From: a virus
Taxonomy: Duplodnaviria; Caudoviricetes
DNA: 34,691 nt
Direction: 5' to 3' (one strand)
IMG/VR virus record: IMGVR_UViG_3300009008_000133
Location: 1-34,691 of that record
The notes under the pieces are model-generated. The model had not been told where the DNA came from and made no database searches. It saw only the letters and a list, made by a program, of their open reading frames with translations. Position numbers and translations under genes: made by a program. Each line of letters opens with the position of its first letter. Positions within the stretch are counted from its first letter, which is position 1. Below, in pieces: positions 1 through 25,282 of this stretch.

Positions 1-148
1 GTCGATGCCGTCCACAGCGCCGGATACCGCGATGTTGCCGTTAACAGTAAGCCCCGCAAAGGTCGGAGAGCTTGAGTTTTTAACGGGCTGATTTAAATAT
101 GCGCTGAGGTCGATGCCGTCCACAGCGCCGGATACCGCGATGTTGCCG
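1..148. repeat. Exact 40-bp direct repeat (1-40 and 109-148), 108-bp period, encoding GNIAVSGAVDGID in the tail fibre
   Basis: gtcgatgccgtccacagcgccggataccgcgatgttgccg occurs at 1 and at 109. The first copy is cut by the window edge. Confidence 0.95.
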
Positions 149-2262: not shown

Positions 2263-2274
2263 CGCTTCACTCCT

Positions 2275-5200
2275 TTATTCGTCATCATCTATAGCGGTCT
2301 TCTCGGCTGTGTGTGGACTCCAGCCCATCATTTCCGCAATACCTTTCTCATATTCGCCAGCCAGGGTGTCGCTGAACCCTGTAGAAATATCCACTGCCTG
2401 CTTTAATGGTTTCCCGATTATTGAACCAACGGCACCGGCCAGACCCCTGACAGCCCTTAAAAAGCTTTCTGCATCCAGCTCATCGATGTCCACCAGATCA
2501 ATAGCTTTTGCCAGATCCTCAAAAATCTGATAGATCGGGATGCCCATATCAAAGGCATGCATGTCCAGCGCCTTTCGGATCAGAAAGTCGAGGCCGTCCC
2601 CCAGGATAAAGAACCCGTTCAGAGATCCCAGGATCATGGCTCGCTTCTGCTCTTCCTCATCCCAGGTGAACCGGTCGGAAACCCACTGAAAAAACATCGG
2701 CAGGATAAAATGGTAAATTGCCATGGTCTTAAAAAATTGCTTTCTGGAAATCCGGCCAGCAGCAAGGTTCCTGATAGCTCCGATCTCTTTTCTGAGGTAT
2801 TGGTTCGGGCTGGACCGGAACATGGTGAACAGCTTGGCAAAGGATCCGCCCCTCTGCCAGGTGGACTGCTCGGATAGATCTGAGGACTGCTGAGTGGACT
2901 CAGCTATGCTCTCAAACTGTCTTATAGCCTCCTCATGGGTCATTCCCTGGCTCCGGTAGTATTTGTATACCGGATACCCGCCACCGATGATCGCGCCGAT
3001 GTCACCGAGCTTAATCTGGAACATGAGCGCATTCGTAAAGCTTGGGGATGTCCTGAACTTGGCGTATGAATCTGAGTTCATGGCCGTTTTGATATCACGC
3101 TCGATCTCACCCTTCTCCCACCTGTGCTTCATCATGGTGGAGGTCATCAGTACTTTGGTCGCTTCCCGCAGATTGAATAAGGTCTTAATAAATTCTTTTG
3201 ACCAGAAAGCCACCGGGATGCTATCGGCGAAAGCCACTGAGGATGTAAGCTGTTTCAAGAATAAAGTTGGCTTGACGGCGAGGACGGCCTGCGTGTACCG
3301 CGACCGTATCTTATCAAGACCTCGGATACTCGTAGCCATCTCTGCGCCGCCTCGTGCAAAGTCCTGGATAAAATTCTGGATGGTCCTATCAATATTTTCA
3401 CCGAAATTGATTCTGATCGCCTGGCGTACATTCGGATTTGAGAAAACAGCATTGAGATCCCGGACCTTAAATGCCCAGGCCTTAAAGTGCTCCATCTCAG
3501 CCACATGACTCATGAGCACTTCCATGTCATTCCTGAGCTTAAGCGGGTATAAGTTAGCTGTTCTGCTCTTCAGGCCGCCTGCTGTAGTGGCGCTGGCCCT
3601 GAACGGCATCTCTTTTAAGAACTCGCCCAGACCAGACTCATCGTCTTTATTGACCCCTTCCCTGGAGATGGGGCTATAATTATCGTTCTTCGGAAGATTA
3701 ACACCGTATATCTCGGAGTAGATCTGGTTGGTCCTATTGTAGTATTCACGATACCAATCCATTTGCCGGGCAATAAAAGCCTCGTCCTGCGGGGTTAGAA
3801 ATTCCCGGAGCGCATCGACCATGGCCTGTGACCAGGCCATGCCCTCAACAGCAAAAATGGTGTCATGCAGAGTCGGATCCAGCAGCTCCATGGCCCTCTT
3901 CCGGGCCTGCGCCCTGGACATCTTCAGCTCGACGACCTCGCCCTTCATGTTCTCAAACGTACCCAGGCTCTGCTCCACAGAATCCTGCTGAAACATCTTG
4001 ACCATCTGCCGGTCACTCTGGATTTGGAACACCTCAAAGATAATCTGCCGCAGCTCCTCCATGGCCTGGAGATTGCCTTCTTTCTCGGCATTCTTTACAT
4101 CAAGAACATCGCCAAATTGACTGATCAGGCTTTGGCCGGGCGCTGAACCCTGGTCTTTGTAAGACAATATATCCAGCAGATCCTTCCAGCCGGTCACAAT
4201 GTTGTTGGCCCCACCGGCAAAGATGGCATTACGGATCCGGGTCTTGATAGCTTTGTCTGTGACGGCCTCTTCTCCGGCAGTCTCAATCCCTTCCGGGATC
4301 CCGCCCATGATGTCGATTAATTCCTGCCGGTAAAACGCCATCAGGTTTGATCGGTTGGCGGCTTTCAGATCCCGCTCAAGGATGCCCTCGGATTTGTACT
4401 GCTTTATTTCGTTTAAGAGCCGACCCCAGGATTCCAGTGTCTCAGCATCTATTTCGAACAAACTCGTTGATTTCATGGCAAGGAGCTTAAGCTGGAGGGA
4501 AATTTCATGAGGCGGGATCTCTCCACCTTCCTGGTAAGCAATGAGAGTGCCTTCAAGTCTCTCCGCAGCGTCATCTCTCCTGAGCTTCATAATACCCTTA
4601 AGGGAATTCAACACCTCCTGCCGCTCGGCACCGAACCGGCCCTGCGGCTTGCCATCTTTCTTTTTGAGCTTAGTGGCCTTCAGCTCTCTCCAGATCTGAT
4701 TGCGGAGCTTGGAGGCCTCATTTCTCAGTTTCTGAGCAGCCTGTGACTTAGCCATGATCGCCCGGATTTTTGCCTTACCTTCTTTGACACCCTCGGTATT
4801 GCCCTCTGCGTAGGCCTTCCGGGCATCCTGAACGGCGACCATTAAAGCTCTTTTCAAGGCCTCTCTGCCACCCAACTCCTCGACCTTATCAAGATTGATC
4901 TCCCTACGCTTGTCTTCTCTGCGGTTCGCCAGGCCTTCGCTCATCGCATCAAGCAGAGACTCATCGTCCTTCAGCCATCCCTCTTCCCTGAGTTTGGCCT
5001 CCATCTTGTCGAGCTTCATGCCATCCTTCTTAGATAGCAGGCTCATGCCCTTGGGGAGGTCTTTAAACTTATGCCCTTCAAAGTTAATCCCGCCAAGATC
5101 CTTGATTGCTTTAAAAATAGAGGCTTCTTTTCTGGTGCCGACCTGGGCCGGAACACTCAGATTCCCAGCATGGCCGCCACAGTTGGAGGCGCACTGCTTC

Positions 5201-8200
5201 TGGTGTTTTTTATGGAAACATTTCCCGCCAACCAGACAGCACGTTCTTTCCTCTCCTTGGAATCTGGGGTTCGCCTCGATCCATGCAACCAGATCCTTGC
5301 TATCCTGATTCCTGCCAACGAGCTGGCCGTCCTTGACCATGAAGGCAAAATCAGAAGCACCGGCAGGCAATGGCTTGGTGTAATCACTGTGATGGTAGGG
5401 CGTGATCACATCAATGAAGTTGAGCATCCCCTTGTAATCCAGGGTGGCATAATACTGGTATTCCTTCAGATTGAGTGCCACAGTCCTGACCTTGACATTC
5501 GGATATTTTTTCTTGAGCCTCACCGCAGTGTCCCACGGCATCCCGCCATTCTGGCCCAGCACCCCGTCATCGATGCTGACATTTATGGTAATGCCCCGGC
5601 CAGCAAAATCCTCTACAAACTCAGGGTTTTTTGTGATAGCTTTTATAGACAAGCCCCTCTGCTTTGCATGTTTCAGCAGGAGCGCCACATTATCCTTGTG
5701 CCAATCCCTGACATAGTCAGAAAAGGCGAACAGCCGCAGGCCGCCACTCTTGTTCAGGTCATCGATCTTTTCTTGGCTCCACTTCAAAATGGCATCCCTG
5801 TAAGGCGTGGTTTCATAGACCGGTTTAGCCTTTACGGCGATGACATCGCTTATGCTCTTGCCTTTATTGAATTCATGGACAGCCACCTTCCGGGTCTGCT
5901 CCACATAGCAATAGGAGCACGGCACATCGACCCCATCCTTGACGGCCTGGTCATAAATGCGGATCCAGAAGTCCGGGTTCAACAATTCATCCCAGATTTC
6001 GTTCTGAGCATCGATATCCCGGATATCCCCCAGCTCACCATCAGTCAGGTATTTAGCAACATACTCAAGCAGATTCCGCTTTTTCGGGCATATTGTGCCG
6101 GGATCCCAAGACATGAGGGTTTTGCCATTTGCGGCGAACCCCTGTTTTTTCAAATCCTGAGTGGTGGCATCCTGACCGACTATGTATCTGAGAACCATCT
6201 CCTTGGATGAATAGTAGTATTTTTCCTGAAGATCCCTGCCGTTTGTAATGATGTCGCTGAACAAGTCATCGAGCGGGTGTTTTTTCCCAAGGGACTTCAG
6301 CCTGCGCCAGATCTCCTTGATTGCTGCCAGCACTTTCCTGAACACACCTTGCAGATCCTTAGAAACGATATCACTCTCGCCGTTAAGCTGGCGCAACCAC
6401 CAATCTCTGAAGCCATCAGCGAACCATTCGTTCTTTGCCATGAAGGCCTTGCGAGCGTTCCCCTTTTTCTTTTTGAATTTGGCTTGGGCTTTTTTGTACT
6501 CCCGGCTGACAATCTTCATGTCAGCACTCTGAATCGGGCCAAGCAGTCGCTTATGGGCAAACTCGCCGAACTCATGCAGGAAGGTGTCAATATTGGAGCC
6601 GTTGAACATCACTGCCAGATGCCGGGCCTGCTCTTTCAGATCACCGGCCTTCTCGGTGAGCAGAACGCCCTCGATGATTTTATCACCGGCCTGTGATGCG
6701 GGGATGCCGTGTGCTTTTAACTGTGCGCCGGTCGGGGCAAACTGTTGATCAGAGAATCTGGGTTCGAAATACTCCTGCCAGCTCTCCGGGAAGATCTGCA
6801 TCACGCCATCGATAACAGCGGCCTCATCCTCACTGATCAGCCCGGACTGCGTGGCCTCTCTCAGGTTGACATGGTTAATGCTGTCCGGGGTGAATTCCGG
6901 GAGGGATTGGTTGGTTTTTCCTACCTGGGCGTAAATGTCTGGGTTGTTTGGATCAAACTCCCCAGAATTATCTGCAGCCGATTTAATATTTGACGGGGTT
7001 TCTTCAAACACATGGACATGAGCGGTCTGAGCGCCCATATCCATGTTAGCAAAACGCTGGTCTGCGTTCTGCAGAACAATGCCATCGTAGCCAAGATTTT
7101 TAAAAACTTGGCCTATGATATGGCTTCCGACATTTTCCCCTGACTCATAATCGTCGGCATAAGTCAATGAATCACTGTCTCTTAATCGGTTTTCAAGATC
7201 TGTAGCCGAAATCTCATAATCGTATATCTCCAGCTCTCCATATAATTTGACCGCATCTACATCAGTATCAAAACCCTGTATCGCATTTTGTATTGCTTCA
7301 AAAATAGGAGGTTCGTCATTAATCGCATAATCTTCCATGCGCTCTCGTATTTCATCTTCAAACTCTTCTGTTTGAGACTTGTCAGCGCCATTCTCTTCAA
7401 GCACCTCATCTGTTGCATCTTCTCGGTATTGCTCGATTACGTCATTGTCAATCCATGTCTCCTTCGGGCCGCCTATAAAAACAGGGTTATCAAGTCGAAT
7501 AAAAAGCTCCATGGTCTGGGGGGTGTCACCGGACAGTCTCTCTGTGGCGATCTGTCTCAAGGCTTCATCACTCTGAAGCGCTGCTTCTGCCTCATCAATA
7601 TCAATGCCGAGTTCGTCGGCTATATCCTCTGCGTCCATGCCCTCAAGACGCTCTGCGAGCATGTCGATTCGCAGGGTCAGGTCCGGCCCCTCACCAGCAT
7701 AATTTATGTCGGCATCGCCCTGGTCGGAGGTAAAATAATTAACCGCTCCAAACTGACCCTCCTTATTGCCTTTGACTGTGGGGTCAAAAATACTAAATTC
7801 ATTGGTTGTGCCGTGATAAACCTTGAACACATGGCCCTTGTTCGGGTCGGCCATGATGATGTCATAGCCTTCGACAACATCATGGCCTTTGCTCCATGCC
7901 TCAAAACCTCCTGGTGCATCCTCTTCACTGGTTGCCACAGAACCAATCTGCGCCGGAGCATCCTCCTCAGCCAGCCCATGAGCTTCAGCTATAAACGCTG
8001 CAATCTCTTCCTCAGACTTAAAAGTAACCGGGACAAAAGCGGGGCCTCTTGAAGAATTCTTGCTAAGCCATGTCTCATCGAACTCGTCCTTGACATTGAC
8101 AGAGTACCAATCCTCAAAAACCTCTCCGTCGTCATACTCTATTCTCCGACCAAGGCGATACCCACCTTCTCGATCCTTTCGAATTGTGTACTGTGTGGAC

Positions 8201-9897
8201 TTATCGCCGGTTTTATCAGTCTCATTTATTGGAACTAAGGCCTTTTGTTCGCCAGGTGCGCCTTCTACGGCCAACCACTCACCACTCAGATCGATATGAG
8301 TCGGGGCATCACCTTCTTCGATGCTACCCTTTTCGGTAGCGCCTACCAGATCCGGACGCTGCTCATTAATCAGGGCATCGATATCCAACTCCTGACCTTC
8401 GGCGATGATCTCATCGAGGACGGCTTCGTCGATTGTGGACTCTTCCGGATTCTCAATGAACTGCTGGACTTCTTCCGGCGTGACATTGATCTGTCGCTCT
8501 TCCAGGGTCGTCTGTTCCTGAACCTCCTTGAGCCTCTCAAAAGCCGTGGCCTTAAAAATCTTTTGCGCTCTTTCCTGCCGGGCCTGCTGCTCCCTGGTGA
8601 GCTGGCGGCCTTCATAATACTGAGTGCCGCCGGTCAGTGCGGATCCGGGCAGAGCCATGACAGTGAATGCCTGGGCTGAGGTCTTGGCAACCTCCATCAA
8701 CCGGGAAATGATTTCCTCTTTCTCCGGGCCTGACAGGTCTGTACCATCAAGATGGTTGGTCAGCTTTCTGGAAAAGACTTCCGCCACGACATTTACTGAT
8801 TCCTGAGAAATCTCTTGGGCTGTCTCTTTTGCGATAGTGGTGCCGTACTGAGTGGTGGTCCGGGCCACGATATTATGCAGCGCCCTGGACTTAACCACAT
8901 CGGTGACTGTTTCATTGATCAGGCCCTGAAGCAGCTTCTTGCCGCCAGGGAATGTGTTGAGCAGTGTCTTGAGCTGGGCAAATTCGATCAGGCCATTGAT
9001 AGCCCCGACACCATATGCTGCAGCTCGCGCTACCTCCGGGTTGACTTTCTCACCTGTATCCGGGTCTTCATAATCAAGGAGATCGATGTAGGCCAGGCCG
9101 CCTTCGACCTTGCCGACAAACTCCAGGGATTTAGATGTCTGTCCGACTGCGTACATGGCAGGGATTAAAGGGTAGGTGAACTCTGCCGTACCTGTGGCAG
9201 CCCCAAGCAGGCCGGTTCCACCAGCAAGCAGAAGGCCTCTCCAAGCGCCACGCCTGGTGGACTCAGCAAGGAATGGGAACATCTCGGCAGCAGAAGCTCC
9301 AAACTCCTGGGCAAAATTCTCTGAATAGGCGATTTCTTCGGGCCTGGGCATTTCTGCCTGAGTTCTCCTGATAGCATCCCAAGTCTCTTCAGAATTGTCG
9401 CCAGCAAGAGCTTGTGCTCCCCACAGGCCGAGATTGACCTGGGCATAGCCCTTGGACAGGTTCTGCTTAAGAAGATCCATCCCCTTGGCTCTGAGCTTTG
9501 CCCTGGCTGGGTCGAGTTTAACACCCTTGTCGATGTGCTTACGGAGCCTCATAGCCTGGGAGGGAGTGATCAGTCCCTCTTCGGGCTTCCGGCCAGCATT
9601 CTGCATGTCAGCATCCACAATGGCCTGGACTGCACTGGCTGCCTCTTTCTCAGGATCTTTAAAAAGATTCATGAATCTGGATGTGATCGAAGGCTCCCCA
9701 CCCTGCTCCAGCCTCTCCCCGGTGTCGATGCCTCCAAGGCGCTCCTGCTGCTTGGGCTTGCCCTCCAGAATGGTTGAAAGGTTGCCCGGCTCCCCCTGGC
9801 TTTCACCAGGGGAGGCAATGGAACCGGGCTGGGGTGGAGTTACTGGGGAGTTCTCCACGGGTTTTTTGTTCTCCAATATTTCACTTAAAGAAGGCAT
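2275..9897 (-). CDS. Giant internal virion/DNA-ejection polyvalent protein (2540 aa) with ADP-ribosyltransferase-like, zincin-like and radical-SAM/Gp88-like modules
   Basis: Last ejection gene before the tail fibre (T7 gp16 position). Motifs: VYHGT...NYFTSD...LFIRLDNP...LGYDGI...NIKSAADNSGEFDPNNPDI; TFLHEFGEFAH...NEWFADGF; ICPK...VPCSYCYVE...GGLRLFAFSDY...AITK...INVSID...CCLVGGKC...CASNC. Confidence 0.85.
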   Translation of the reverse strand: MPSLSEILENKKPVENSPVTPPQPGSIASPGESQGEPGNLSTILEGKPKQQERLGGIDTGERLEQGGEPSITSRFMNLFKDPEKEAASAVQAIVDADMQNAGRKPEEGLITPSQAMRLRKHIDKGVKLDPARAKLRAKGMDLLKQNLSKGYAQVNLGLWGAQALAGDNSEETWDAIRRTQAEMPRPEEIAYSENFAQEFGASAAEMFPFLAESTRRGAWRGLLLAGGTGLLGAATGTAEFTYPLIPAMYAVGQTSKSLEFVGKVEGGLAYIDLLDYEDPDTGEKVNPEVARAAAYGVGAINGLIEFAQLKTLLNTFPGGKKLLQGLINETVTDVVKSRALHNIVARTTTQYGTTIAKETAQEISQESVNVVAEVFSRKLTNHLDGTDLSGPEKEEIISRLMEVAKTSAQAFTVMALPGSALTGGTQYYEGRQLTREQQARQERAQKIFKATAFERLKEVQEQTTLEERQINVTPEEVQQFIENPEESTIDEAVLDEIIAEGQELDIDALINEQRPDLVGATEKGSIEEGDAPTHIDLSGEWLAVEGAPGEQKALVPINETDKTGDKSTQYTIRKDREGGYRLGRRIEYDDGEVFEDWYSVNVKDEFDETWLSKNSSRGPAFVPVTFKSEEEIAAFIAEAHGLAEEDAPAQIGSVATSEEDAPGGFEAWSKGHDVVEGYDIIMADPNKGHVFKVYHGTTNEFSIFDPTVKGNKEGQFGAVNYFTSDQGDADINYAGEGPDLTLRIDMLAERLEGMDAEDIADELGIDIDEAEAALQSDEALRQIATERLSGDTPQTMELFIRLDNPVFIGGPKETWIDNDVIEQYREDATDEVLEENGADKSQTEEFEDEIRERMEDYAINDEPPIFEAIQNAIQGFDTDVDAVKLYGELEIYDYEISATDLENRLRDSDSLTYADDYESGENVGSHIIGQVFKNLGYDGIVLQNADQRFANMDMGAQTAHVHVFEETPSNIKSAADNSGEFDPNNPDIYAQVGKTNQSLPEFTPDSINHVNLREATQSGLISEDEAAVIDGVMQIFPESWQEYFEPRFSDQQFAPTGAQLKAHGIPASQAGDKIIEGVLLTEKAGDLKEQARHLAVMFNGSNIDTFLHEFGEFAHKRLLGPIQSADMKIVSREYKKAQAKFKKKKGNARKAFMAKNEWFADGFRDWWLRQLNGESDIVSKDLQGVFRKVLAAIKEIWRRLKSLGKKHPLDDLFSDIITNGRDLQEKYYYSSKEMVLRYIVGQDATTQDLKKQGFAANGKTLMSWDPGTICPKKRNLLEYVAKYLTDGELGDIRDIDAQNEIWDELLNPDFWIRIYDQAVKDGVDVPCSYCYVEQTRKVAVHEFNKGKSISDVIAVKAKPVYETTPYRDAILKWSQEKIDDLNKSGGLRLFAFSDYVRDWHKDNVALLLKHAKQRGLSIKAITKNPEFVEDFAGRGITINVSIDDGVLGQNGGMPWDTAVRLKKKYPNVKVRTVALNLKEYQYYATLDYKGMLNFIDVITPYHHSDYTKPLPAGASDFAFMVKDGQLVGRNQDSKDLVAWIEANPRFQGEERTCCLVGGKCFHKKHQKQCASNCGGHAGNLSVPAQVGTRKEASIFKAIKDLGGINFEGHKFKDLPKGMSLLSKKDGMKLDKMEAKLREEGWLKDDESLLDAMSEGLANRREDKRREINLDKVEELGGREALKRALMVAVQDARKAYAEGNTEGVKEGKAKIRAIMAKSQAAQKLRNEASKLRNQIWRELKATKLKKKDGKPQGRFGAERQEVLNSLKGIMKLRRDDAAERLEGTLIAYQEGGEIPPHEISLQLKLLAMKSTSLFEIDAETLESWGRLLNEIKQYKSEGILERDLKAANRSNLMAFYRQELIDIMGGIPEGIETAGEEAVTDKAIKTRIRNAIFAGGANNIVTGWKDLLDILSYKDQGSAPGQSLISQFGDVLDVKNAEKEGNLQAMEELRQIIFEVFQIQSDRQMVKMFQQDSVEQSLGTFENMKGEVVELKMSRAQARKRAMELLDPTLHDTIFAVEGMAWSQAMVDALREFLTPQDEAFIARQMDWYREYYNRTNQIYSEIYGVNLPKNDNYSPISREGVNKDDESGLGEFLKEMPFRASATTAGGLKSRTANLYPLKLRNDMEVLMSHVAEMEHFKAWAFKVRDLNAVFSNPNVRQAIRINFGENIDRTIQNFIQDFARGGAEMATSIRGLDKIRSRYTQAVLAVKPTLFLKQLTSSVAFADSIPVAFWSKEFIKTLFNLREATKVLMTSTMMKHRWEKGEIERDIKTAMNSDSYAKFRTSPSFTNALMFQIKLGDIGAIIGGGYPVYKYYRSQGMTHEEAIRQFESIAESTQQSSDLSEQSTWQRGGSFAKLFTMFRSSPNQYLRKEIGAIRNLAAGRISRKQFFKTMAIYHFILPMFFQWVSDRFTWDEEEQKRAMILGSLNGFFILGDGLDFLIRKALDMHAFDMGIPIYQIFEDLAKAIDLVDIDELDAESFLRAVRGLAGAVGSIIGKPLKQAVDISTGFSDTLAGEYEKGIAEMMGWSPHTAEKTAIDDDE

Positions 9898-11543
9898 TAC
9901 TTGCTTAAAAGCTCCGTCTTATATTTGTTAAATTCAGTGGTGTTCGCGACCTGTTCCAGTTCCTCTGGGGAAAAATCTTCCGGGTTGTAGCCCTTGGACT
10001 TGATCAGCTCTGCGGCCAGATCCAGATCCCGGTCACCGGATGCAATGGCTTTAAGCCGCTGATCCTCCTGCTCTCCTGGAACAAGGTTCTCCCAGAATAC
10101 ACTCAGTTCTTTCGCCATCTCTTCAGCAGCGATAAGATCGAGCTTGCTGCTGACATACTCAGCCGGATCTTTGCCGGGATTATCCTCAATCCACTCGTTA
10201 AGGCCAACAAGGATGTCAGCTTTGATACGAGCTGCCTTGCCTTTTCTCTTGCCGGTTGTTTTTCCAAAGTCTCCACGATTATACATCTCCTTTATCCGGT
10301 TTTTTTGAGCTGTAATCGATTGTTTGACTTTCTGTTTCTGAGAACTCTTATTGTATTTTAAAAGGCTCTCAAGGTGCGTAGGCTTAACAGATGGGCCGAA
10401 CTCCCGGATAATACTTTCATCTGTCAGTGGCTTATCATCCTCAACAGCCTGATCGATCTTGTCCTGGGCCGTGGTGTAAACAAAATAATCGGTTTGCTGC
10501 TTTTCGCCGTACAGGGACTTGACCAGAGGCCCGATGGCTTTGCGGTCATCCTCATTCTCGATAAGATCCAGGGCTTTCTCCCGGTTGCCCTTGCTCCGCC
10601 AGATTTCCATAACCTGTTTTGTCTTCAGATCCCGGCGCTGCTCGGTCTGCTCTTTCTCTATTTCCTGCGCTTCCTCATACCTCGCCTTGACCCTTTTGAC
10701 CGTGTCATCCCGTACATCGGCGTTTTTAACCTTCCTGGCTGCCTTAAGTTGGTCTTGATAACTGTCATGCTTCCCCATGATTTGATCAGCCATGGCCTGG
10801 CCCTGTACCTTGATATTGGCCTTGTCGACCTTGGCTTTTAATTTATGATATGCCCCACCCAGCTCATCTTTCCATTCTTTGAGCATGTGCTTTGCCATAC
10901 CCGGATTTCCAACGTCCGGATCCAGCATCTCTTGAATGGCTGCGACCCTATTGGCTGCCTTAGCCTTGGCGATGTCGGCAGAGTTGTCCATGCCGGGGTA
11001 AGTTGTCTTGTAAGTCGCCTCGATCTCAGCATCTGCCAGCTTCATGCGACCAATACTATACGGGTCCATACGAACATCAGACTGAAGCCGATCCAAAGTG
11101 CCTTCAAGGTTACTCTTTTTAAATTTGTCGTGTTGGATGGACTCATGCCTGGAAAGGGAATCAAGATCCTGCTCTCTGTGCGGCGTGTAAAGGCGCTCGA
11201 ACATGGATTGCTGTTCCTGATTCTCAAGCTCACCTCCAATCTTAGCAGCCTCCTCGTTATACCAGGTCCCATACTCATCCATGACCCCGGTGGCATCGCC
11301 GCCCCTGCGCTGGAGCTGGGCGTTGTATTTGTCCCTGGCCGTAGACCTGAAGGCATTAAAAACGCTTCTGGCCTTGGCCTCATTGCGTTCTGTCTGCATT
11401 TCAAGGCCACGCTGCGCCATCATTCTTCCAGCCCTACCAAAAGCCTCAGCCACCTCACTGCCTGCATTCGGGCCAACCCTCGGTGCTCCAAGAGATCCTG
11501 GCAATCTTTCCTGTGGGGTTTTTACTGGTATCCTAAGAGCCAT
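9897..11543 (-). CDS. Internal virion/ejection protein (T7 gp15 position), helical
   Basis: Charged alpha-helical protein between the small ejection protein and the giant protein. I moved the start to ATG 11543 (MALRIP) because of a TAATG overlap with the upstream stop. Confidence 0.7.
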   Translation of the reverse strand: MALRIPVKTPQERLPGSLGAPRVGPNAGSEVAEAFGRAGRMMAQRGLEMQTERNEAKARSVFNAFRSTARDKYNAQLQRRGGDATGVMDEYGTWYNEEAAKIGGELENQEQQSMFERLYTPHREQDLDSLSRHESIQHDKFKKSNLEGTLDRLQSDVRMDPYSIGRMKLADAEIEATYKTTYPGMDNSADIAKAKAANRVAAIQEMLDPDVGNPGMAKHMLKEWKDELGGAYHKLKAKVDKANIKVQGQAMADQIMGKHDSYQDQLKAARKVKNADVRDDTVKRVKARYEEAQEIEKEQTEQRRDLKTKQVMEIWRSKGNREKALDLIENEDDRKAIGPLVKSLYGEKQQTDYFVYTTAQDKIDQAVEDDKPLTDESIIREFGPSVKPTHLESLLKYNKSSQKQKVKQSITAQKNRIKEMYNRGDFGKTTGKRKGKAARIKADILVGLNEWIEDNPGKDPAEYVSSKLDLIAAEEMAKELSVFWENLVPGEQEDQRLKAIASGDRDLDLAAELIKSKGYNPEDFSPEELEQVANTTEFNKYKTELLSK

Positions 11544-12046
11544 TATGCGTACCTCCCCCATCTATATTTTGAGCTTAAAAGGCCGCTGGTCTTCGGTTTC
11601 TTAAAACCCCCTGCCACCCTTGAGCCGGTCATCAGCATATCGGAAAAAGCGTTCACATATCCGGCTCTCTTGGCCTGTTTGCCCTGGCTTTGGTACAGCC
11701 CAGCCTGACTTTTTGCGCTCCATTCTTCCATCTTGCCTCCAGACCGAATAATAGAAGCGTCAATGGCAAAGCTCCGCATGATATCCTCTGCGGCATCAAG
11801 GTTGCTGCCAGAGTCAGTGACAAAGCCGGTTGATCCTGCAATTGCTCTGGCAGATCCAATCGTCCTGGCCTCATCATCTCTCAGCAAATCCTCATCAAGC
11901 TTGGCCTTCTGCCTGGCGTACTTGCCTTCGTACTCAGACATGGTAGCGTTAAACTCAGCGTTCTGCTCGGCATTAATGCCAGCGGCAATACCGCTGACCC
12001 CACCCATAACTCCACCGGCAATTAATAAAGCTGTCCCGACTCCCAT
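11543..12046 (-). CDS. Small internal virion/ejection protein (T7 gp14-like)
   Basis: Gly/Ala-rich hydrophobic N-terminus, ARAIAGSTGFVTDSGSNLD motif, located right after the nozzle gene. Confidence 0.75.
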   Translation of the reverse strand: MGVGTALLIAGGVMGGVSGIAAGINAEQNAEFNATMSEYEGKYARQKAKLDEDLLRDDEARTIGSARAIAGSTGFVTDSGSNLDAAEDIMRSFAIDASIIRSGGKMEEWSAKSQAGLYQSQGKQAKRAGYVNAFSDMLMTGSRVAGGFKKPKTSGLLSSKYRWGRYA

Positions 12047-12048
12047 AA

Positions 12049-14310
12049 TTACACCTCAACATCTGTAAGTATTGCTAAAATTTTAAGAGGCAGCGGCTGA
12101 CCCTGCCTTATACACACTGTCGGCGCTCTGTCATCAGGCCCCCCAAAAGAAATCTCATCTGTGAAACCATGGAAGAGCTGGGCTGGCCTGCCCAAAGGAA
12201 CGGCATCAGTGGTCAGGTCATACTCCTTAAGATCGTTAAATGCCGGGCCATAGTTAAATCCAAGGCTTTCGTCGAGCATCAGTATAAGATTCTTGATCTG
12301 ATTTACCTGGCCCATGCTTACGCCTGAATTAAGAGGCACAATCTGTGGCAGCGTTTCAAGATCCGACGTATACCCAAGACCTACATGGATCACGCTTGCC
12401 GAAGCTGTCAGGGTTATAGCACCTCCAGATACTGTTTTAAGTCCTTCAGCATCAGATCCATCCGCCATTACTGTAACTGATTCGCCCTCAAGATGACTCA
12501 GCCCGGAAATGCTCGTGACATTCTCGGCGACCGTGGCAGACACAACCTCATAATGGTTCGTCAAATCCATTACCGTGTCGCTCACATCTTTTAACTGGAA
12601 GGTATTGGCCGTCTTGGCATAGACAGTGAACCGCTCATAATGGAGGTTTTTATCCTCATCATCGATATAACCGTCGACACCATATTTATCATCCTCATAT
12701 AGCGCCCGGATTGTAATGGAATCACCATCGCTGTATCCATGGCCGGTCACGGTGATCACGCCCGGATTCGCATAGGAGATGGATTCTATTGTCTGCCGGT
12801 TGTCCAGGGACAAACCGGAATCCACATAAAAAGCGTCTGTGGTATCGTCGTGCTTGCCGGGCTTAAAGCTCTCGGCCATGCGTTCGATATATCGTTTGGT
12901 CGATCCGTTGACCGTGCGTTTAACAACAAACCAGACTTCGTCTTCAGGCGTGCCTGGGATCACAGCCACAGATTCAAACAGGCCCTCAGTCTCATGCCAG
13001 GCCCATCCGTAAACCTTGTGCTCTTTATAATATGTTAGGCTGAAGAGCTTGCCGCTTTCAGTTACACACCAAAGAACCCTATGGGGAACTTCCTGGAAAT
13101 CCATCTGTAAAATCTTTTCATCACGCAGGAGCTGGCTGATCAGCAGAGAGGCCTCCTCTCCCCTGAACGAGTTTGATTCATAGGTATATTCAAGCTCCTG
13201 GAGGGCATGACCATGCCTCTTGGTAAAGAGAATGGTGTCTCCCACCGACACTGGTGCCACATCTTCGCAGCCATGAGATGAGCCAAGAGATCTGTATTTG
13301 GAAGTCGCCGTGATAGGCCCTTCACCGGATGCACTTGTCAGCCACCATTCGGCACCGGTTGTCCCGATTGCAAACTTCTGAGCACTCTCAATCCACTGGA
13401 TGGTGTTCGCCTTGGCCGTGTTGATCGTCAGCGCCAGGGCATCGTCATCAACCAGCGGCTCAGAAACACCGTGATCCGCATAAAGGCCAACCTTGCTCAA
13501 CCAGAGGGTCTGGAGATAAGCCCAGCAGAGCCGGTCATTATCAAATGTGACTGTCTTCGGAAATCCCGTGGTGTCAGACCAGGCTCCCAGCTTCCAGGTG
13601 GGCATCGCTGTGGTAGCCCCAAAATCATCGACTACGGTGGCATTCACTACCGTAGTGCTGGTAATACTTGTAATCCGTGCGATGCCCCACTCAAGCGGCG
13701 CTCCATTTTCAATAGCGACGAGCCTGCCGACATCTGTGGATATAAAGCCCTGGTCATTATTAATCCCCGTCACTGCCGACGCTGTAATGGTAATGCCCCC
13801 TGTAGTGGCACTCGGAGCGAGAGTGGTAGATGTAGAATTTTGGGCAATAAACGGGCCTGTTTCGTGGGTGATATCAGAGATGGCCCATGAGGCATGATCA
13901 GATCTGACGAGAGTTCTGGGCAGCTTGGATGAGCAGGCAATATACTGCGTGTCATTGAGCTGGGCAAAGTCCAGGCCCTGCAAAAGCGCCTCTGTGTAAG
14001 TGGTTACAACCTCGTAAGGAGCACCAATCACCCCGCCATCCTTAAAAAACCGGATATAAAGATCCCCGTACTCAAGGATGTAGGCCTGCTCAGTATTGAA
14101 TTCAAATGGAACGAGCCTGCACTCTTTATCGTGGTTCTTCGCCTCAGCAATGAATTCAAGGCCCATCCGGCGTGTAACCGGTCCATGGGCGAGGGGGATG
14201 AAGTTCTTAAGCTCCTTCAGCGCATACGGGTACTTGCCGTCAAGATCGATCCTGGCCTTTACCTCCGGGGAAACCACGCCAACATTAAAAGATACCTGGG
14301 CAAAATCCAT
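12049..14310 (-). CDS. Tail tubular protein B / nozzle (T7 gp12-like)
   Basis: QVSFNVGVVSP...RIDL...NFIPLAHGPVTRRMG...RLVPFEFNTEQAYILEYGDLYIRF N-terminus; GWAWH, RYIERM, YVDSG, GLSHLEGE, VGLGY and QPLPLKILAI motifs. Confidence 0.9.
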   Translation of the reverse strand: MDFAQVSFNVGVVSPEVKARIDLDGKYPYALKELKNFIPLAHGPVTRRMGLEFIAEAKNHDKECRLVPFEFNTEQAYILEYGDLYIRFFKDGGVIGAPYEVVTTYTEALLQGLDFAQLNDTQYIACSSKLPRTLVRSDHASWAISDITHETGPFIAQNSTSTTLAPSATTGGITITASAVTGINNDQGFISTDVGRLVAIENGAPLEWGIARITSITSTTVVNATVVDDFGATTAMPTWKLGAWSDTTGFPKTVTFDNDRLCWAYLQTLWLSKVGLYADHGVSEPLVDDDALALTINTAKANTIQWIESAQKFAIGTTGAEWWLTSASGEGPITATSKYRSLGSSHGCEDVAPVSVGDTILFTKRHGHALQELEYTYESNSFRGEEASLLISQLLRDEKILQMDFQEVPHRVLWCVTESGKLFSLTYYKEHKVYGWAWHETEGLFESVAVIPGTPEDEVWFVVKRTVNGSTKRYIERMAESFKPGKHDDTTDAFYVDSGLSLDNRQTIESISYANPGVITVTGHGYSDGDSITIRALYEDDKYGVDGYIDDEDKNLHYERFTVYAKTANTFQLKDVSDTVMDLTNHYEVVSATVAENVTSISGLSHLEGESVTVMADGSDAEGLKTVSGGAITLTASASVIHVGLGYTSDLETLPQIVPLNSGVSMGQVNQIKNLILMLDESLGFNYGPAFNDLKEYDLTTDAVPLGRPAQLFHGFTDEISFGGPDDRAPTVCIRQGQPLPLKILAILTDVEV

Positions 14311-14311
14311 A

Positions 14312-14908
14312 TCAACTCCCTGCCACCACCCAAGAGTCGGTGTCTTTCGTATGTTTTACCTTACTCTCTGCGGTTTTATTGGACTCCGGTGCCTCTTTTA
14401 TTCTCGCTCTTGGCAAGTCGATCAGCTCATAGACCTCGTACCAGGTGTATTTGTTCCCGGATACCATAGTGCCTTTCTTTTTAAGAGGGATCGACAAAAA
14501 GGCTCTGAGCCTGGAATAAAGCGCAACGATAAAGTATGTCGGATATTTGCTTTCGTCGTTCATGTCTTGGATGTACTCCATATTGAACGGCGAGGCATTT
14601 GTCAGGATGTGCTCTCCCCTGCGCTCCCAATTATTACCCTCGTCATCTCTGACCGGTCGGATAAAATCCGTCGGTATCTGATAGGCATAATCCCATTCAT
14701 CATCCACCATTGTGTAGCTGCTGTCTTCAGCGAGAGAGGCCCACTTCTTTGCAAAGTCCCATGTATGATCCTGGAGAACTTCTCTGAGGGCCTGGTCCCA
14801 GAAGGTGCTCACATATTCAGCCTCTTTTGTGGCCTCCGTAAGACTTGAGATCTCGCTGGCCCCAAGGCTGCTCAGTGCCAAATTTGCTATTTCAACTTGA
14901 CTTGCCAT
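14312..14908 (-). CDS. Tail tubular protein A / head-tail adaptor (T7 gp11-like)
   Basis: MASQVEIANLALSSLGA...L...HTWDFAKK...WDYAYQIPTDFIR signature and gene position. Confidence 0.88.
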   Translation of the reverse strand: MASQVEIANLALSSLGASEISSLTEATKEAEYVSTFWDQALREVLQDHTWDFAKKWASLAEDSSYTMVDDEWDYAYQIPTDFIRPVRDDEGNNWERRGEHILTNASPFNMEYIQDMNDESKYPTYFIVALYSRLRAFLSIPLKKKGTMVSGNKYTWYEVYELIDLPRARIKEAPESNKTAESKVKHTKDTDSWVVAGS

Positions 14909-14911
14909 TTT

Positions 14912-15313
14912 TTATGCCTCGCCGTGGGTGTCTATCTTCAGGGCATCAGCAACGACATCGTCTTTCTTTCTGCCCTTATAAGAAATACCATAGGCCTTGC
15001 CGATGTCGCTTGACTTGGTCTTGTCCAGCTCGTCAGGTCCCATGGCATGAACTCTTTTACCCAGAGCCGCAACGACAGGGTCCTCATCAGTCTCAGGCTC
15101 CAGTGTTTCTTCCGGCTCAGAAGAGCCTGTAGACTGCTCAGGCGGTTCGATTTCCATCTGAACCCCCTTGCCCCCGGTTTTTTTAAATCGTTTCAAATGG
15201 GGATATTTCTCAGGGTCCCATTCGTCGATATCGCTGAACTCCACCCTCTGCCCCTCCTCAACATATCCATGCTCAGGTGTGGTGCAGACCTCCTCACAAA
15301 TTGCAGTAAACAT
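14912..15313 (-). CDS. Hypothetical virion-module protein (acidic linker, short helical C-terminus)
   Basis: RBS AGGAGG, sits within the late operon. Confidence 0.7.
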   Translation of the reverse strand: MFTAICEEVCTTPEHGYVEEGQRVEFSDIDEWDPEKYPHLKRFKKTGGKGVQMEIEPPEQSTGSSEPEETLEPETDEDPVVAALGKRVHAMGPDELDKTKSSDIGKAYGISYKGRKKDDVVADALKIDTHGEA

Positions 15314-15326
15314 TTTGCCTCCTTTG

Positions 15327-15358
15327 AAAAAGGACGGGAGCCGGAACCCCCGCCCGTT
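15327..15358 (-). terminator. Rho-independent terminator after the capsid/cement genes
   Basis: Minus strand ACGGG...CCCGT GC-rich hairpin followed by CCTTTTT. Confidence 0.6.
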
Positions 15359-15375
15359 TAATTATGGATTAAAGA

Positions 15376-15798
15376 TTAGCTGGTAAAATCGTTCGCCTGC
15401 GGCGCATGAGCCAGGTACACATGAGCAGCGCCTGCGGTAAGAGCAGCGGTGCCGATGGTCTGCGTAATCCTTAAGTATCGCTCACAGCCAGCCGGTATAC
15501 GAATAGCCAGCACTTGATACCCGGCCACAAGGGTGGCCTTGCCAATGGCAGAGGTCGCATGAAGCTCGTTGGCAGAACCAAAAGCCTCGTCATTATCTGT
15601 CTCAAGCTTAAACAAGACAGTGGCTGCGCCTGCTGAGGTCACGGCGGTGGATATCTGAATAATCAGATACATTTCCCTGCCGTAAGCGTCGCCAGCGGCG
15701 TTCAGATCGATGATGTCGCCAAATTGCGCGGTGGCAGGAGCCGCTGTAGAAAGAGCCGCCGCATTGGCAAATGTGTTAAGTCGGTCAAGAATACCCAT
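15376..15798 (-). CDS. Capsid cement/decoration protein (Bbp16-like)
   Basis: MGILDRLNTF...DIIDL...TSAGAATV.F.L.T...LVAGY...IPAGCERYLR...TAG pattern, directly after the major capsid gene. Confidence 0.85.
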   Translation of the reverse strand: MGILDRLNTFANAAALSTAAPATAQFGDIIDLNAAGDAYGREMYLIIQISTAVTSAGAATVLFKLETDNDEAFGSANELHATSAIGKATLVAGYQVLAIRIPAGCERYLRITQTIGTAALTAGAAHVYLAHAPQANDFTS

Positions 15799-15841
15799 GA
15801 TATTTCTCCTTTGATCAGGTTATTAGTTAATCAATTGCCTA

Positions 15842-16852
15842 TTAAGTAGCCTGTGACAGTGCGGCTTCAGAAGTCAGCATTTTGTCACTTACCCGGATCG
15901 GGATGCCGTCAAACATCATGACCTTTTTACCTTCAACAGTCTCAAAGGTCAGGTTGGTGTTTGTATGGTTCAGCATCTGGATTCTAAGCATGGTGCGAAC
16001 GCCTTCAGGCATGTACCAGGCTTTCCTGCCGTTGCCACGGACACGCTCACTCAGTTTAATCATGAGCTTGATCAGATCTGCGGCAGATGACTCGCCAACA
16101 AGGTTGGAATAATCGATATTGCAGATACGACCAACAGAGCGCCAATCCTTTACGCACATACCGATATCCCATTTGTAATGGGTCACATAAGCCAGAAAGT
16201 CGCCAGAGCTGTCATCAGCGGCGGTAAGCTGCTTTCCGAGATTCTCGGTCTGAAGACCAGCAACAGAACCTTTCGGATACAGCATATGACAAGTCTGATC
16301 GCCCCAGGTGATTAACCACACGGAGCAGTTATCAGAGCCGGAACCCCCGCCGTTCAGAACATTATGGGCGGAGATGGTTTTATCCAGGGTGGCTTTTTCG
16401 TACAGGGTGTACCTTGGAGCCAGGCCCATAAACCTGTCCGGATATGTAGCAGTGTCGCCATAAAACATGGTCGTTGCGATCTGCTGGTTCAAGCCTTCAA
16501 GGTGCGGAGTGTGCTCAGAAAGAAGAGCGGTCGCAGGGTCACCGGATTTATCGATTACATCGCAATCGATTTTCGGCAGGGCTTCCAGCATTCCGCAGGT
16601 ATCAACAACCTGACGGGTGCTTGATTTGGTGGACAGAACGCCACCGTACAGCCGCCTCCAGGTTCCTGAGGGGATGCCGGTTCTCACAGTGCCTTTGTTT
16701 GTGGTGCCGTCATTACACTCTTTGAACACCATGTCATCAAGACACTCATTGGTTTCATTTAACAGTTCAGCGATAGTTGCAATTTTTCCGTCAGGATCTT
16801 TTCTGCGGGATACGTCTGCCAGTGTTAGGTTTCTCGTCGCAAGAGTTGCCAT
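15842..16852 (-). CDS. Major capsid protein (BPP-1/epsilon15-like)
   Basis: LTLADVSRRKDPDGKIATIAELLNETNE.LDD...VRTGIP..TWRRLYGGV...FMGLAPRY...SVWLITWG...HYKWDIG..VKDWR...RICNID...FDGIPIR. Confidence 0.93.
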   Translation of the reverse strand: MATLATRNLTLADVSRRKDPDGKIATIAELLNETNECLDDMVFKECNDGTTNKGTVRTGIPSGTWRRLYGGVLSTKSSTRQVVDTCGMLEALPKIDCDVIDKSGDPATALLSEHTPHLEGLNQQIATTMFYGDTATYPDRFMGLAPRYTLYEKATLDKTISAHNVLNGGGSGSDNCSVWLITWGDQTCHMLYPKGSVAGLQTENLGKQLTAADDSSGDFLAYVTHYKWDIGMCVKDWRSVGRICNIDYSNLVGESSAADLIKLMIKLSERVRGNGRKAWYMPEGVRTMLRIQMLNHTNTNLTFETVEGKKVMMFDGIPIRVSDKMLTSEAALSQAT

Positions 16853-22817: not shown

Positions 22818-23072
22818 TCAGATCTCCTCTATCTGGTTTAAAATCAAATCCGCCTTGGCATATCCCTTCCTTAAACCGATAAGTCTGCGCCGAAATCTTG
22901 AGATGACTTTTTTCTGGTCCCGGTGCTTCATCCAATCCTCAAAATCCAAGATCTTTCCATGGAGATCCTTCATCTCTTTAAGGATTTTATGATAGCCATC
23001 CAGCCAATCCAGATACTCGCGCATCATATTGGCCCCATTCTTTTGGATCATGTCACAGCCACGGCACATCAC
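22818..23072 (-). CDS. Hypothetical protein
   Basis: Coupled to neighbouring genes; helical. Confidence 0.6.
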   Translation of the reverse strand: MMCRGCDMIQKNGANMMREYLDWLDGYHKILKEMKDLHGKILDFEDWMKHRDQKKVISRFRRRLIGLRKGYAKADLILNQIEEI

Positions 23073-23530
23073 TCACCCCTCCGTTGATTCCAAAGGTTCC
23101 GGGCTTCTGTCCTGGTCGAACCGCTCTGGGCGATTGCCCCGCAGTCAATACAGCCGTACTGATAAGCCACCGGTGTTATACTAAGAATAACTATTTCTTC
23201 AGACCCACAAAACGGGCATGGTTCAAGCTTTAGTCTTGACTTAACCGACAAATACACAAACCCGTCGTCCTCCGCTCTTTCACTTTCCAATGTTAACCCA
23301 CAGGCCGCCGGGGTCCAGCCTCCCCCTCTCTCCATCTCTTTCAACACACACTCCAGCCCTTTGAGCACCAGCAGCCGAGGATCCCGGATTTCGTCAAAAT
23401 TATATCCGTACTTCTTCAAAAGCTCTTTGGCCTTACTCATGCCTGCTGCCCTCCTCTTTTTGTCCTGATGTATCAAGCCAAGAAATTTATGCATATCCCG
23501 AATGGTTTCCCAATACCGTCCGCTTGCCAT
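23069..23530 (-). CDS. Protein with C-terminal Lar-family (restriction alleviation) zinc finger
   Basis: LEPCPFCGS...CIDCGA...EARNLWNQR at the C-terminus; the ~100-aa N-terminal part is not recognised. Confidence 0.75.
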   Translation of the reverse strand: MASGRYWETIRDMHKFLGLIHQDKKRRAAGMSKAKELLKKYGYNFDEIRDPRLLVLKGLECVLKEMERGGGWTPAACGLTLESERAEDDGFVYLSVKSRLKLEPCPFCGSEEIVILSITPVAYQYGCIDCGAIAQSGSTRTEARNLWNQRRGE

Positions 23531-23539
23531 CCCGCCCCC

Positions 23540-23932
23540 TCACCCGATCCGGTTAATAAACAGATCAGCGTTCATACTCGTTATCTCCAGATGCACATGC
23601 GGCTTCATCCTATCCCCGTGTTTTTTCCTCACATCCTGGGCAATACCAATCACCTCGCCCTGGAGCACCTCATCACCGGGCCTGGCAGTTGGCTTGAAAT
23701 AGTACATCTTGACCGTGACATCACTGCCTTTGATCACCAGCCCGGAAAAAGACTCACCCGTATAAGGCTTTGTTTTCCTGATGACCTTGCCAGATATTGG
23801 GGCGATCACCTCTTGACCCGGATCACAGAGATAATCCGTCCCTGTATGAACTCTGCCGCCCCTCTTAGCGCCATAATGCCCGGACCCCATTGAGTCTACT
23901 CTTACCGTTGTTTTCCCTGTTGGACTAATCAT
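23540..23932 (-). CDS. M23-family metallopeptidase, LECT2-like
   Basis: HTGTD (HxxxD) and PHVHLE (HxH) zinc motifs; GSGHYGAKRGGRVH, APISG, KPY and VKMYY blocks match LECT2 as I recall it. Confidence 0.85.
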   Translation of the reverse strand: MISPTGKTTVRVDSMGSGHYGAKRGGRVHTGTDYLCDPGQEVIAPISGKVIRKTKPYTGESFSGLVIKGSDVTVKMYYFKPTARPGDEVLQGEVIGIAQDVRKKHGDRMKPHVHLEITSMNADLFINRIG

Positions 23933-24257: not shown

Positions 24258-24760
24258 TTCTCCTTCCCCTCAATAACCGGTTTTAATGTCACCTTGCCGC
24301 TCGGCCTGACCCGGACGACCTTGTAGACTTTGTTATGGATAAATGTCTGTCTCTGGCCGAGTGGATTGGTCGATGGAATCATGATGCCGACCCTCCAGCC
24401 CTCTTCAAGCGACGATGTCTCTGTCATCGTTACCGTTATGGCTGGAGTTTGCTGACCCGGCTTCTTCTCACTCATTCTCTTGTCGAATTCCTTAAGCTTC
24501 TCATCAAGATCGATCACGTTTGAATTGCTCAAAACATCTCCTCCTGTTCCTCCGGGTGGACCTTCACAAAGGCATTTAAAAAGGCTTCTCTCCCCCTCAA
24601 GGGTTGTAGCCCAATTACCGCAGCGTTCTTTATATTTTGCAAAAGCCTTGGTGTGCTGGATCCAGAGGGAATCCGCTCCCAACAATGATCCATTATTTGC
24701 GACGAGTTCGATAACCTCTTCCGCCGCTCGCTTTAATTCTCCCATTTGCATTTGTCCCAT
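24254..24760 (-). CDS. Hypothetical protein
   Basis: The ORF track starts it at 24802. An AGGGAG RBS suggests the true start is ATG 24760 or 24751. Confidence 0.6.
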   Translation of the reverse strand: MGQMQMGELKRAAEEVIELVANNGSLLGADSLWIQHTKAFAKYKERCGNWATTLEGERSLFKCLCEGPPGGTGGDVLSNSNVIDLDEKLKEFDKRMSEKKPGQQTPAITVTMTETSSLEEGWRVGIMIPSTNPLGQRQTFIHNKVYKVVRVRPSGKVTLKPVIEGKEK

Positions 24761-24950
24761 ACTCCCTAAATCTCTGGTCCCTTTCAAATGGCCGGAGAGC
24801 ACATTTACCCTCCGGCACCTTCCGATAATTCAGCGAGGGATGAGAATGATAATTACAGGGCTTTTCTTCCTTTTCCCGCCGACCGGCAGCATTGCAGGTC
24901 CGTCACAGCCACAGCTCATCAGCCTCTTCGATATCAATCCAGAACGCCAT
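24693..24950 (-). CDS. Candidate selenoprotein, 85 aa, with in-frame UGA (24903-24905) in a U-x-x-C motif
   Basis: AGGAGG RBS; ATG overlaps the upstream stop. Reads MAFWIDIEEADELWL[TGA]RTCNAAGRREKEEKPCNYHSHPSLNYRKVPEGKCALRPFERDQ...RTRRK, followed by a SECIS-like hairpin. Confidence 0.7.
24876..24905 (-). promoter_or_regulatory. Bacterial SECIS-like element
   Basis: UGA CGGACCUGCAAUG CUGCC-GGUC-GGCGG: 5-bp stem with a GGUC loop at +22..+25 counting U of UGA as 1, the same register as E. coli fdhF (UGCA-GGUC-UGCA, recalled). Confidence 0.65.
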
Positions 24951-25282
24951 CAGACCTCCTCGATCTCGATAGGATAGTGAGCCTCAACCAGCTTCTTTTT
25001 GGCGATGTATTCTTTTGTCCTGTAACCCTTCACATCCTCAAAAGACACGGTGCCATCGGCCCAGAAAATCTGGAAGTCGACCCGGTAGATCACCCGGCCA
25101 GGAAGATGTAACGGCACCTGGCGCAGAAAAAAAACAATCTTACCCTGGTTCTTCATAAACTTCAGCTCATTGTATCTCCGGGCCTCTTTCTTACTGTCAA
25201 ACCGAAATCCGTCATACTCAACCGCAATCGCCCTGTACTTATGCTTTGGCCTGCGCCCCTTCTTTGATGGCATTATTCTCAT
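24950..25282 (-). CDS. DUF1064-family PD-(D/E)xK-like nuclease
   Basis: HKYRA....DGFRFDSKKEARRY.EL...RQVP...YRVDF...FEDVKG..T..Y..KKKL signature. Confidence 0.88.
   Translation of the reverse strand: MRIMPSKKGRRPKHKYRAIAVEYDGFRFDSKKEARRYNELKFMKNQGKIVFFLRQVPLHLPGRVIYRVDFQIFWADGTVSFEDVKGYRTKEYIAKKKLVEAHYPIEIEEV

Follow-up and report, generated by a model that had tools for sequence, protein, structure and literature searches.

Bacterial SECIS elements, as modelled in the legend to Fig. 2 of PMC13188914, have a loop of 3–9 nt with a G in one of its first two positions, a stem of 4–16 bp, a spacing of 16–37 nt and an MFE of −7.5 or lower, and the E. coli element requires a bulged U17, according to the available text of PMC8659212. 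Small bacterial selenoproteins with a UxxC motif include, in the available parts of PMC13188914, the CYCXC (PF13798) and dual-CXXC (NF041197) proteins. For viruses, the available text of PMC8310308 names the poxvirus glutathione peroxidases of molluscum contagiosum and fowlpox, and poxviruses are the only virus cases there. The words 'phage' and 'virus' are absent from the main text of the 2026 prokaryotic selenoproteome review (PMC13188914), and 'phage' is absent from the main text of PMC2398784 and PMC1794560. A first-pass annotation of the locus described here had named no characterised phage selenoprotein, and our literature search, made on titles and abstracts outside most subscription journals, likewise found no paper on one, although phage-borne entries may be present in supplementary selenoprotein tables. 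Here we describe a phage gene of one lineage that is a good selenoprotein candidate, from a previously unnamed Cys-rich family. If the candidate is true, Sec decoding by the host is recruited by phages for genes of their own, which standard gene calling misses.

An in-frame TGA in a temperate phage

The window, the whole of a 34,691-base virus record, comes from a temperate phage of lambdoid type, with divergent HTH repressors, RecT, ExoVIII, a replication initiator, terminase, portal and capsid; the region studied is present in two DNA runs of one study labelled as marine metagenome. The phage uses translation table 11. TGA ends many of its genes and its long genes are open under this table, with no internal TGA, so genome-wide reassignment of TGA was rejected. 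Rfam and ARAGORN searches of the window returned no RNA family and no tRNA match. Other minus-strand genes encode a virion protein of polyvalent type, 2540 aa long, that carries an ART-PolyVal ADP-ribosyltransferase domain (2275–9897; PF18760, E 2.7e-11), a Lar-like restriction alleviation domain (23069–23530; PF14354) and an M23 peptidase that is probably a lysin (23540–23932).

The replication genes are separated from the terminase by a string of small genes. Within it, on the minus strand and directly 3′ of a DUF1064 or Holliday-junction-resolvase-like gene (24950..25282; PF06356, phrog_190), is an 85-codon ORF interrupted by one TGA (24693..24950). It begins with ATG (24950–24948) and reads 15 codons, the TGA (codon 16, 24903..24905), 69 further codons and TAA (24695–24693), with no lesion besides the TGA. 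Its read-through product has the pattern U16-x2-C19-x12-C32-x17-C50, plus H35 and H37. This geometry and residue spacing had been described in the first-pass annotation, with the strand left unstated, and were borne out on translation. The ATG overlaps the DUF1064 stop in TGATG (24952–24948) and is preceded by AGGAGG (24955..24960), both of which the annotation had noted. Both the motif and the overlap are present, but the AGGAGG is weak independent evidence for a start, because it lies only 4 nt from the ATG and also encodes the E-E-V end of DUF1064. The layout downstream (24745–24254, minus) is ambiguous between a called ORF of 163 or 182 aa and a 54-aa ORF followed by a 92-aa gene. The 54-codon ORF (24529..24693, minus) starts at an ATG that shares TAATG with the stop codon of the read-through ORF; it competes with the 163-aa ORF in another frame. 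The alternative 92-aa gene would start at TTG 24532, which AGGAGGAG precedes by 7 nt. Clear support from codon scores is confined to the last 92 codons, and a search for relatives of the downstream ORFs found none.

The TGA recurs in other assembly data. A Logan contig of run X1, possibly the source sample, has 0 differences from the window over 24850–24925 at a depth of 5.4, with TGA and hairpin (below) unchanged, and a contig from another assembly (CAYUCH010000267.1; L022) carries the same TGA and hairpin. L022 is 99.6% identical to the window, with 7 differing bases in 1586 nearby, none of them inside the gene. These two contigs form the comparison at the TGA, which the contigs of run X2 do not cover, and they give no sign of a sequencing or assembly error at codon 16. 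No RNA run was among those containing the region, and RNA run X3 gave no match to it, a result that bears neither way on expression. L022 (contig C267 of the bin G001, below) also lacks about 31 bases of DUF1064, at about 25025–25055 of the window, and this shifts the frame (protein P0010) so that it ends beyond the start of the read-through ORF, either as a variant or as an assembly artefact.

A Cys-rich family with an invariant Cys at the TGA

A phmmer search of 1.84 billion representatives gave 20 matches at E ≤ 1e-3, of 57–107 aa and with a best value of 4.5e-18. With cluster members of the first 10 matches and the results of a profile search, these make up a set of 41 homologs, to which six later members do not belong. 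The family pattern is C-x2-C-x12-C-x2-H-x14-C, and the TGA, a putative Sec codon, aligns with the first Cys of the CxxC. That Cys is invariant (41/41), and its codon is TGC or TGT in all eight distinct homolog DNA sequences. Homologs with Cys at the TGA and conservation on both sides of it, as the first-pass annotation had predicted, thus exist. The 41/41 count is uninformative on how frequent TGA forms are, because protein databases built with table 11 cannot contain Sec forms. C19 and C50 are likewise present in all 41, C32 in 40, N41 in 39, and Y34, H35 and P46 in 38 each; of the two histidines singled out at first, H35 is therefore conserved, whereas H37 occurs in only 26/41. Position 21, by contrast with the Ala of the query, is Phe in 35 homologs, Tyr in 2, Ser in 2, Trp in 1, Leu in 1 and Ala in 0.

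Scored against a profile built without the query, the read-through frame reaches 86 bits over its full length, like other members. In leave-one-out ranking the query stands 13/24 for residues 3–15, 13/24 for residues 17–30 and 5/24 for residues 31–64; judged by sequence, it appears free of decay on either side of the TGA, mid-rank before and high after. In a tree of 29 rows, built after 13 near-duplicates had been removed from the 42, the query falls within the main unresolved group; its branch measures 0.52 and it lacks a close sister. One base change turns TGY into TGA, and the closest Cys relative shares about 55% identity, which puts no date on the change.

The homologous loci are phage-like and, as read from translations, adjoin replication initiator, loader, helicase or primase-like genes. 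Most protein members derive from Logan and ENA assemblies, and the one homolog with an organism name, a distant one, belongs to a Desulfamplus MAG. In two Cys homologs (L002 at ~2930, minus; L014 at ~2650) a frameshift or truncation breaks the family frame beyond residue ~55–60, so the family is not free of lesions or errors. The family has no match in Pfam, NCBIfam, PHROG or PDB sequences. The query alone found nothing in a word-indexed protein search, and peptide-pattern scans of metagenomes and tblastn of GenBank phages gave nothing useful; one viral match (L001), within a 679-aa tail protein, was rejected as chance. The first-pass annotation had compared the product with a 50-aa Cys-rich protein of the same phage (26267–26419, minus; CxxC plus three more Cys, two close cluster members), but the family profile does not match it and homology was rejected.

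The four conserved Cys/His ligands beginning with CxxC (C16, C19, C32 and C50, with H35) are those of a zinc-finger pattern, and the family sequence makes metal binding of zinc-finger type through residue 16, C19, C32 and C50, possibly with H35, probable. The predicted structure (pLDDT 75.7, pTM 0.56) has helices at residues 7–12 and 54–64 and no sheet. In view of the missing sheet and the lack of a Pfam match, a UxxC oxidoreductase of thioredoxin fold was rejected; the model would fit a metal-organised mini-domain better. Foldseek gave 0 matches in the PDB and, in BFVD, none under E 0.001, and the best VIA-align Z was 2.1, which for a predicted model does not show a new fold. An atlas look-up with a Cys homolog (P0165) returned only unnamed small viral clusters, at 0.91, and the recognition score was low. 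It would be unusual for Sec to sit in what is probably a structural metal site instead of a catalytic redox site.

Few members of the family are present in the collections searched, and the sole second TGA copy is L022, from the same population (99.6%). A scan of metagenome DNA for the family pattern gave 16 loci, 10 of them family members (some redundant) and 6 chance; a genome scan gave 2 loci, 1 of them chance; and a viral scan gave 5, comprising 2 repeats of known members and 3 chance loci. A TGA-specific viral scan gave 14 loci, none in the family and all chance. Profile searches of overlapping samples of 401, 401, 351, 4 and 2 genomes matched only G001, and searches of IMG/VR, of JGI metagenomes and, by exact pattern, of GTDB found no independent TGA lineage. 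Because conservation or covariation of the hairpin needs such a lineage, Sec insertion stays inferred.

A SECIS-like hairpin downstream of the UGA

Counted from the U of the UGA, the RNA reads C17 U18 G19 C20 C21 [G22 G23 U24 C25] G26 G27 C28 G29 G30, a SECIS-like apical hairpin at +17 to +30 (24876..24889, minus) in which the pairs C17-G30, U18-G29, G19-C28, C20-G27 and C21-G26 close a GGUC loop (24884–24881). The loop of 4 nt with G22 first, the stem of 5 bp, the spacing of 18 nt and the energy of −7.8 kcal/mol all lie within the bSECIS ranges given above. The likeness to E. coli fdhF that the first-pass annotation had seen proved real: 9/12 bases at positions 18–29 equal those of the E. coli element (NC_000913.3) in the same register, and G23 and U24 sit in the apical loop as in that element. 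Also as noted there, the bulged U17 is absent, C17 being paired with G30. The C21-G26 pair, which had been called compensatory, is instead a convergence with E. coli, without a change between homologs.

The competing fold that had been suspected is real in the free RNA: GACC at +6 to +9 (24897..24900, minus) pairs with the GGUC loop and prevails, leaving the SECIS pairs a probability of 0.01 (z about −0.3). A ribosome paused on a UGA covers roughly the first 9–12 nt. After removal of +1 to +9 or +12, the apical pair probability rises to 0.95–0.99; since the E. coli element, trimmed in the same way, is wrongly predicted to unfold (0.02), this folding argument depends on the model and is suggestive only.

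We calibrated the hairpin on 66 distinct Sec codons (27 FdhA, 29 SelD and 10 MvhD), taken from the best-scoring loci of 61 Desulfobulbia genomes. A strict contiguous-stem test is passed by 52/66 of them and by the phage hairpin, against 17/1464 TGAs of the window (query included), 61/4000 TGAs of host loci and 0/8 Cys homologs. A test of the FdhA register, which was defined after the hairpin had been seen, is passed by 24/27 FdhA codons, by the query alone among the 1464 window TGAs and by 0/4000 host-locus TGAs. These contiguous-stem tests miss E. coli fdhF and 10/10 MvhD elements. A loose model passes 115/1464 window TGAs and 621/4000 host-locus TGAs, and with 8–16% of the background passing it means little by itself. 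Among the 16 further window TGAs with a strict hairpin, inspection by eye gave no second convincing candidate; TGA 22413 (minus), whose hairpin has a GGTC loop and lies ahead of the start of the terminase small subunit but out of its frame, and TGA 32164 (minus), in a 71-codon open frame antisense to recT, were judged chance.

Part of the hairpin follows from the protein. G19, C20, G22, G23 and G26 are fixed by the Ala-Gly-Arg motif of the family, and two Cys homologs (L005 and L007) have a 3-bp proto-stem with a GGGA loop. Specific to the TGA form are GGU, the CGG-CGG codons and the Ala that replaces Phe21, whose codon supplies C17 of the stem. In 10000 synonymous shuffles with the residues of the query, the register hairpin arose in 1.05% and the strict hairpin in 6.2%; with the residues of the 41 homologs the means were 0.05% and 0.76%. 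Both the protein and the codons of the query thus deviate towards a SECIS.

A second, stronger hairpin of 11 bp lies further on, at codons 45–53 (24791..24816, minus; about −19.5 to −20.6 kcal/mol, z −3.6), and covers a GGAGG and the GTG at 24802. It exceeds its equivalents in 7/8 Cys homologs; across all 8, these equivalents range from −4.6 to −18.7 kcal/mol and are weaker or differently placed.

A candidate host with Sec machinery

L022 belongs to G001, a MAG of an uncultured member of Desulfobulbia, an anaerobic class. The Sec-utilising host that the first-pass annotation had implied finds its counterpart here, through a link by binning only: G001 encodes selA, selB, a Sec-type selD and a tRNA-Sec with anticodon UCA (selC), and its mvhD and fdhA contain TGA. 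One selB and one tRNA-Sec score above the family cut-offs. Across the class Desulfobulbia, selD is present in 60/61 genomes. Two contigs of G001 are purely phage, of 6196 and 2575 bases, together 8.8 of the 34.7 kb, with none from window positions 1–16000. A Sec-using Desulfobacterota host therefore fits, on binning and with the phage–host junction absent from the bin. Matches to a loader-like phage protein, 0/251 among genomes of the phylum, have no bearing on the host. When the host loci were mined for additional Sec families, a single extra FdhA and antisense noise were all that emerged. A further frame in G001 (L039, minus 1992, contig C2) reads ...PGA-TGA-ANRH... and then 419 open codons, with no obvious hairpin.

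Proposed selenocysteine decoding and its alternatives

Five things are directly observed: the TGA, the invariant Cys with which it aligns, a family motif that is intact, the sequence of the hairpin and the Sec genes of the co-binned genome. We consider it likely that this is an intact phage gene in which a lineage-restricted switch from Cys to Sec has occurred, in a probable zinc-binding accessory protein whose UGA is decoded by the host. The proposal of the first-pass annotation, a host-decoded phage selenoprotein, is supported. Translation would start by coupling at the TGATG of DUF1064 and the ribosome would pause at UGA16. By covering the first 9–12 nt past the UGA, it would remove the GACC/GGUC pairing and let the apical hairpin form; host SelB could then bind the G22-G23-U24 loop and, with Sec-tRNA, deliver Sec. 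The product would be an 85-residue accessory protein of zinc-finger type, made in the early region beside the replication genes, with Sec16, Cys19, Cys32 and Cys50 as putative ligands of a metal such as zinc and His35 as a possible further one. Its basic tail suggests binding to nucleic acid or protein, and its amount would be low and dependent on the selenium supply of the host. A plausible route from Cys to Sec is one in which the protein motif pre-forms half a SECIS, the Ala-Gly-Arg proto-hairpin being completed by one residue change (Phe21→Ala), the Arg codon at 25 and codon choice.

The alternative with the best standing, though an unlikely one, is that TGY recently mutated to TGA, as a nonsense change in an accessory gene that the phage can do without, the hairpin being a by-product of the Ala-Gly-Arg codons. 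One base change would suffice, a single population carries the TGA, five stem or loop bases are fixed by the motif, and L005 and L007 already have their 3-bp stem and GGGA loop; moreover, the strict-hairpin background is 1.2–1.5% and the candidate was picked from very many windows. However, a random stop would have to fall on one of the 38 single-base routes to a stop in the gene (4/38 for any Cys codon), and it would need an independent hairpin that 0.05–0.8% of the homolog-residue shuffles yield, through a substitution seen in 0/41 homologs. The gene bears no second lesion, and the two assemblies share the TGA despite 7 differences in 1586 nearby bases. The 1/38 (or 4/38), multiplied by a hairpin background of ~1% or lower, puts chance nonsense at about 1e-3 or less. 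Our prior, itself uncertain, is that broken accessory genes outnumber phage Sec genes by a factor of some tens, and it is from weighing the ~1e-3 against these tens that Sec decoding comes out as likely and nonsense as unlikely.

The UGA might also be decoded as Cys, by an opal suppressor tRNA-Cys of selC* type or by near-cognate leak, to give an ordinary all-Cys protein. All relatives use Cys, and tRNA-Cys(UCA) with a second SelB is known from some deltaproteobacteria, being reported in Desulfobacterales and Syntrophobacterales in the available text of PMC5389517. Against this, only one selB and one tRNA-Sec pass the cut-offs in G001, the phage has no tRNA and TGA is a normal stop at many of its gene ends; we regard Cys decoding as improbable.

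We give slightly less credence still to a reading in which UGA and SECIS serve mainly as a selenium-dependent translational switch, the protein being secondary: read-through would open the 24816–24791 hairpin and couple TAATG to the downstream genes. That hairpin is strong (z −3.6) and weaker or displaced in the 8 Cys homologs, and there is the stop/start overlap at 24693. But the GTG at 24802 beneath it stems from the codons for Cys50-Ala51, which are conserved, and over residues 51–68 codon statistics favour the frame of the Sec ORF (+2.8 bits) over the GTG frame (−6.8 bits); this GTG was rejected as a likely start; the Cys homolog L007 folds almost as strongly, and the protein motif is fully kept. 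Last, a sequencing or assembly error at codon 16 is very unlikely, for although depth in the runs with the region is low (about 5×), the X1 Logan contig and L022 agree on the TGA.

Returning to host-decoded Sec, we would go further, at little better than even confidence: a temperate phage of Sec-rich bacteria of sulfate-reducer type may have converted a structural metal-ligand Cys of its own early protein to Sec, building the SECIS in place and sacrificing a conserved Phe. The result would be a phage-born family with a Sec-ligated site of zinc type, its synthesis tied to host selenium.

Comparison with known selenoprotein systems

The phage gene resembles bacterial genes with a SECIS inside the ORF, such as E. 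coli fdhF, in having UGA at the place of a conserved Cys and a loop that starts with G 18 nt downstream, and it shares with fdhF the GGUC loop at +22 to +25; it differs from fdhF in lacking the bulged U17 and a stable lower stem. It is closer to the FdhA, SelD and MvhD elements of Desulfobulbia, which also have a contiguous GC-rich upper stem without a bulge. The FdhA stems lack the bulged U17 as well, and in 24/27 of them GGU starts at +22, as in the phage. Yet 65/66 of these elements have a predicted loop of 3 or 5 nt and their stems are mostly of 6–8 bp, whereas the phage has 4 nt and 5 bp.

The protein, in turn, is unrelated to the listed bacterial selenoprotein families (no NCBIfam, Pfam or PHROG match), is phage-borne and represents one lineage. 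It resembles the small UxxC selenoproteins in size and, like CYCXC, would place Sec in U-x-x-C, but no member of the phage family scores against PF13798 or NF041197, and the family keeps four Cys/Sec residues plus His and an early-region location. With the poxvirus glutathione peroxidases it would share being encoded by a virus and relying on the Sec machinery of the host. Those proteins, however, use a eukaryotic SECIS and are captured host enzymes, whereas the Sec described here appears to have arisen in place, within a family native to phages.
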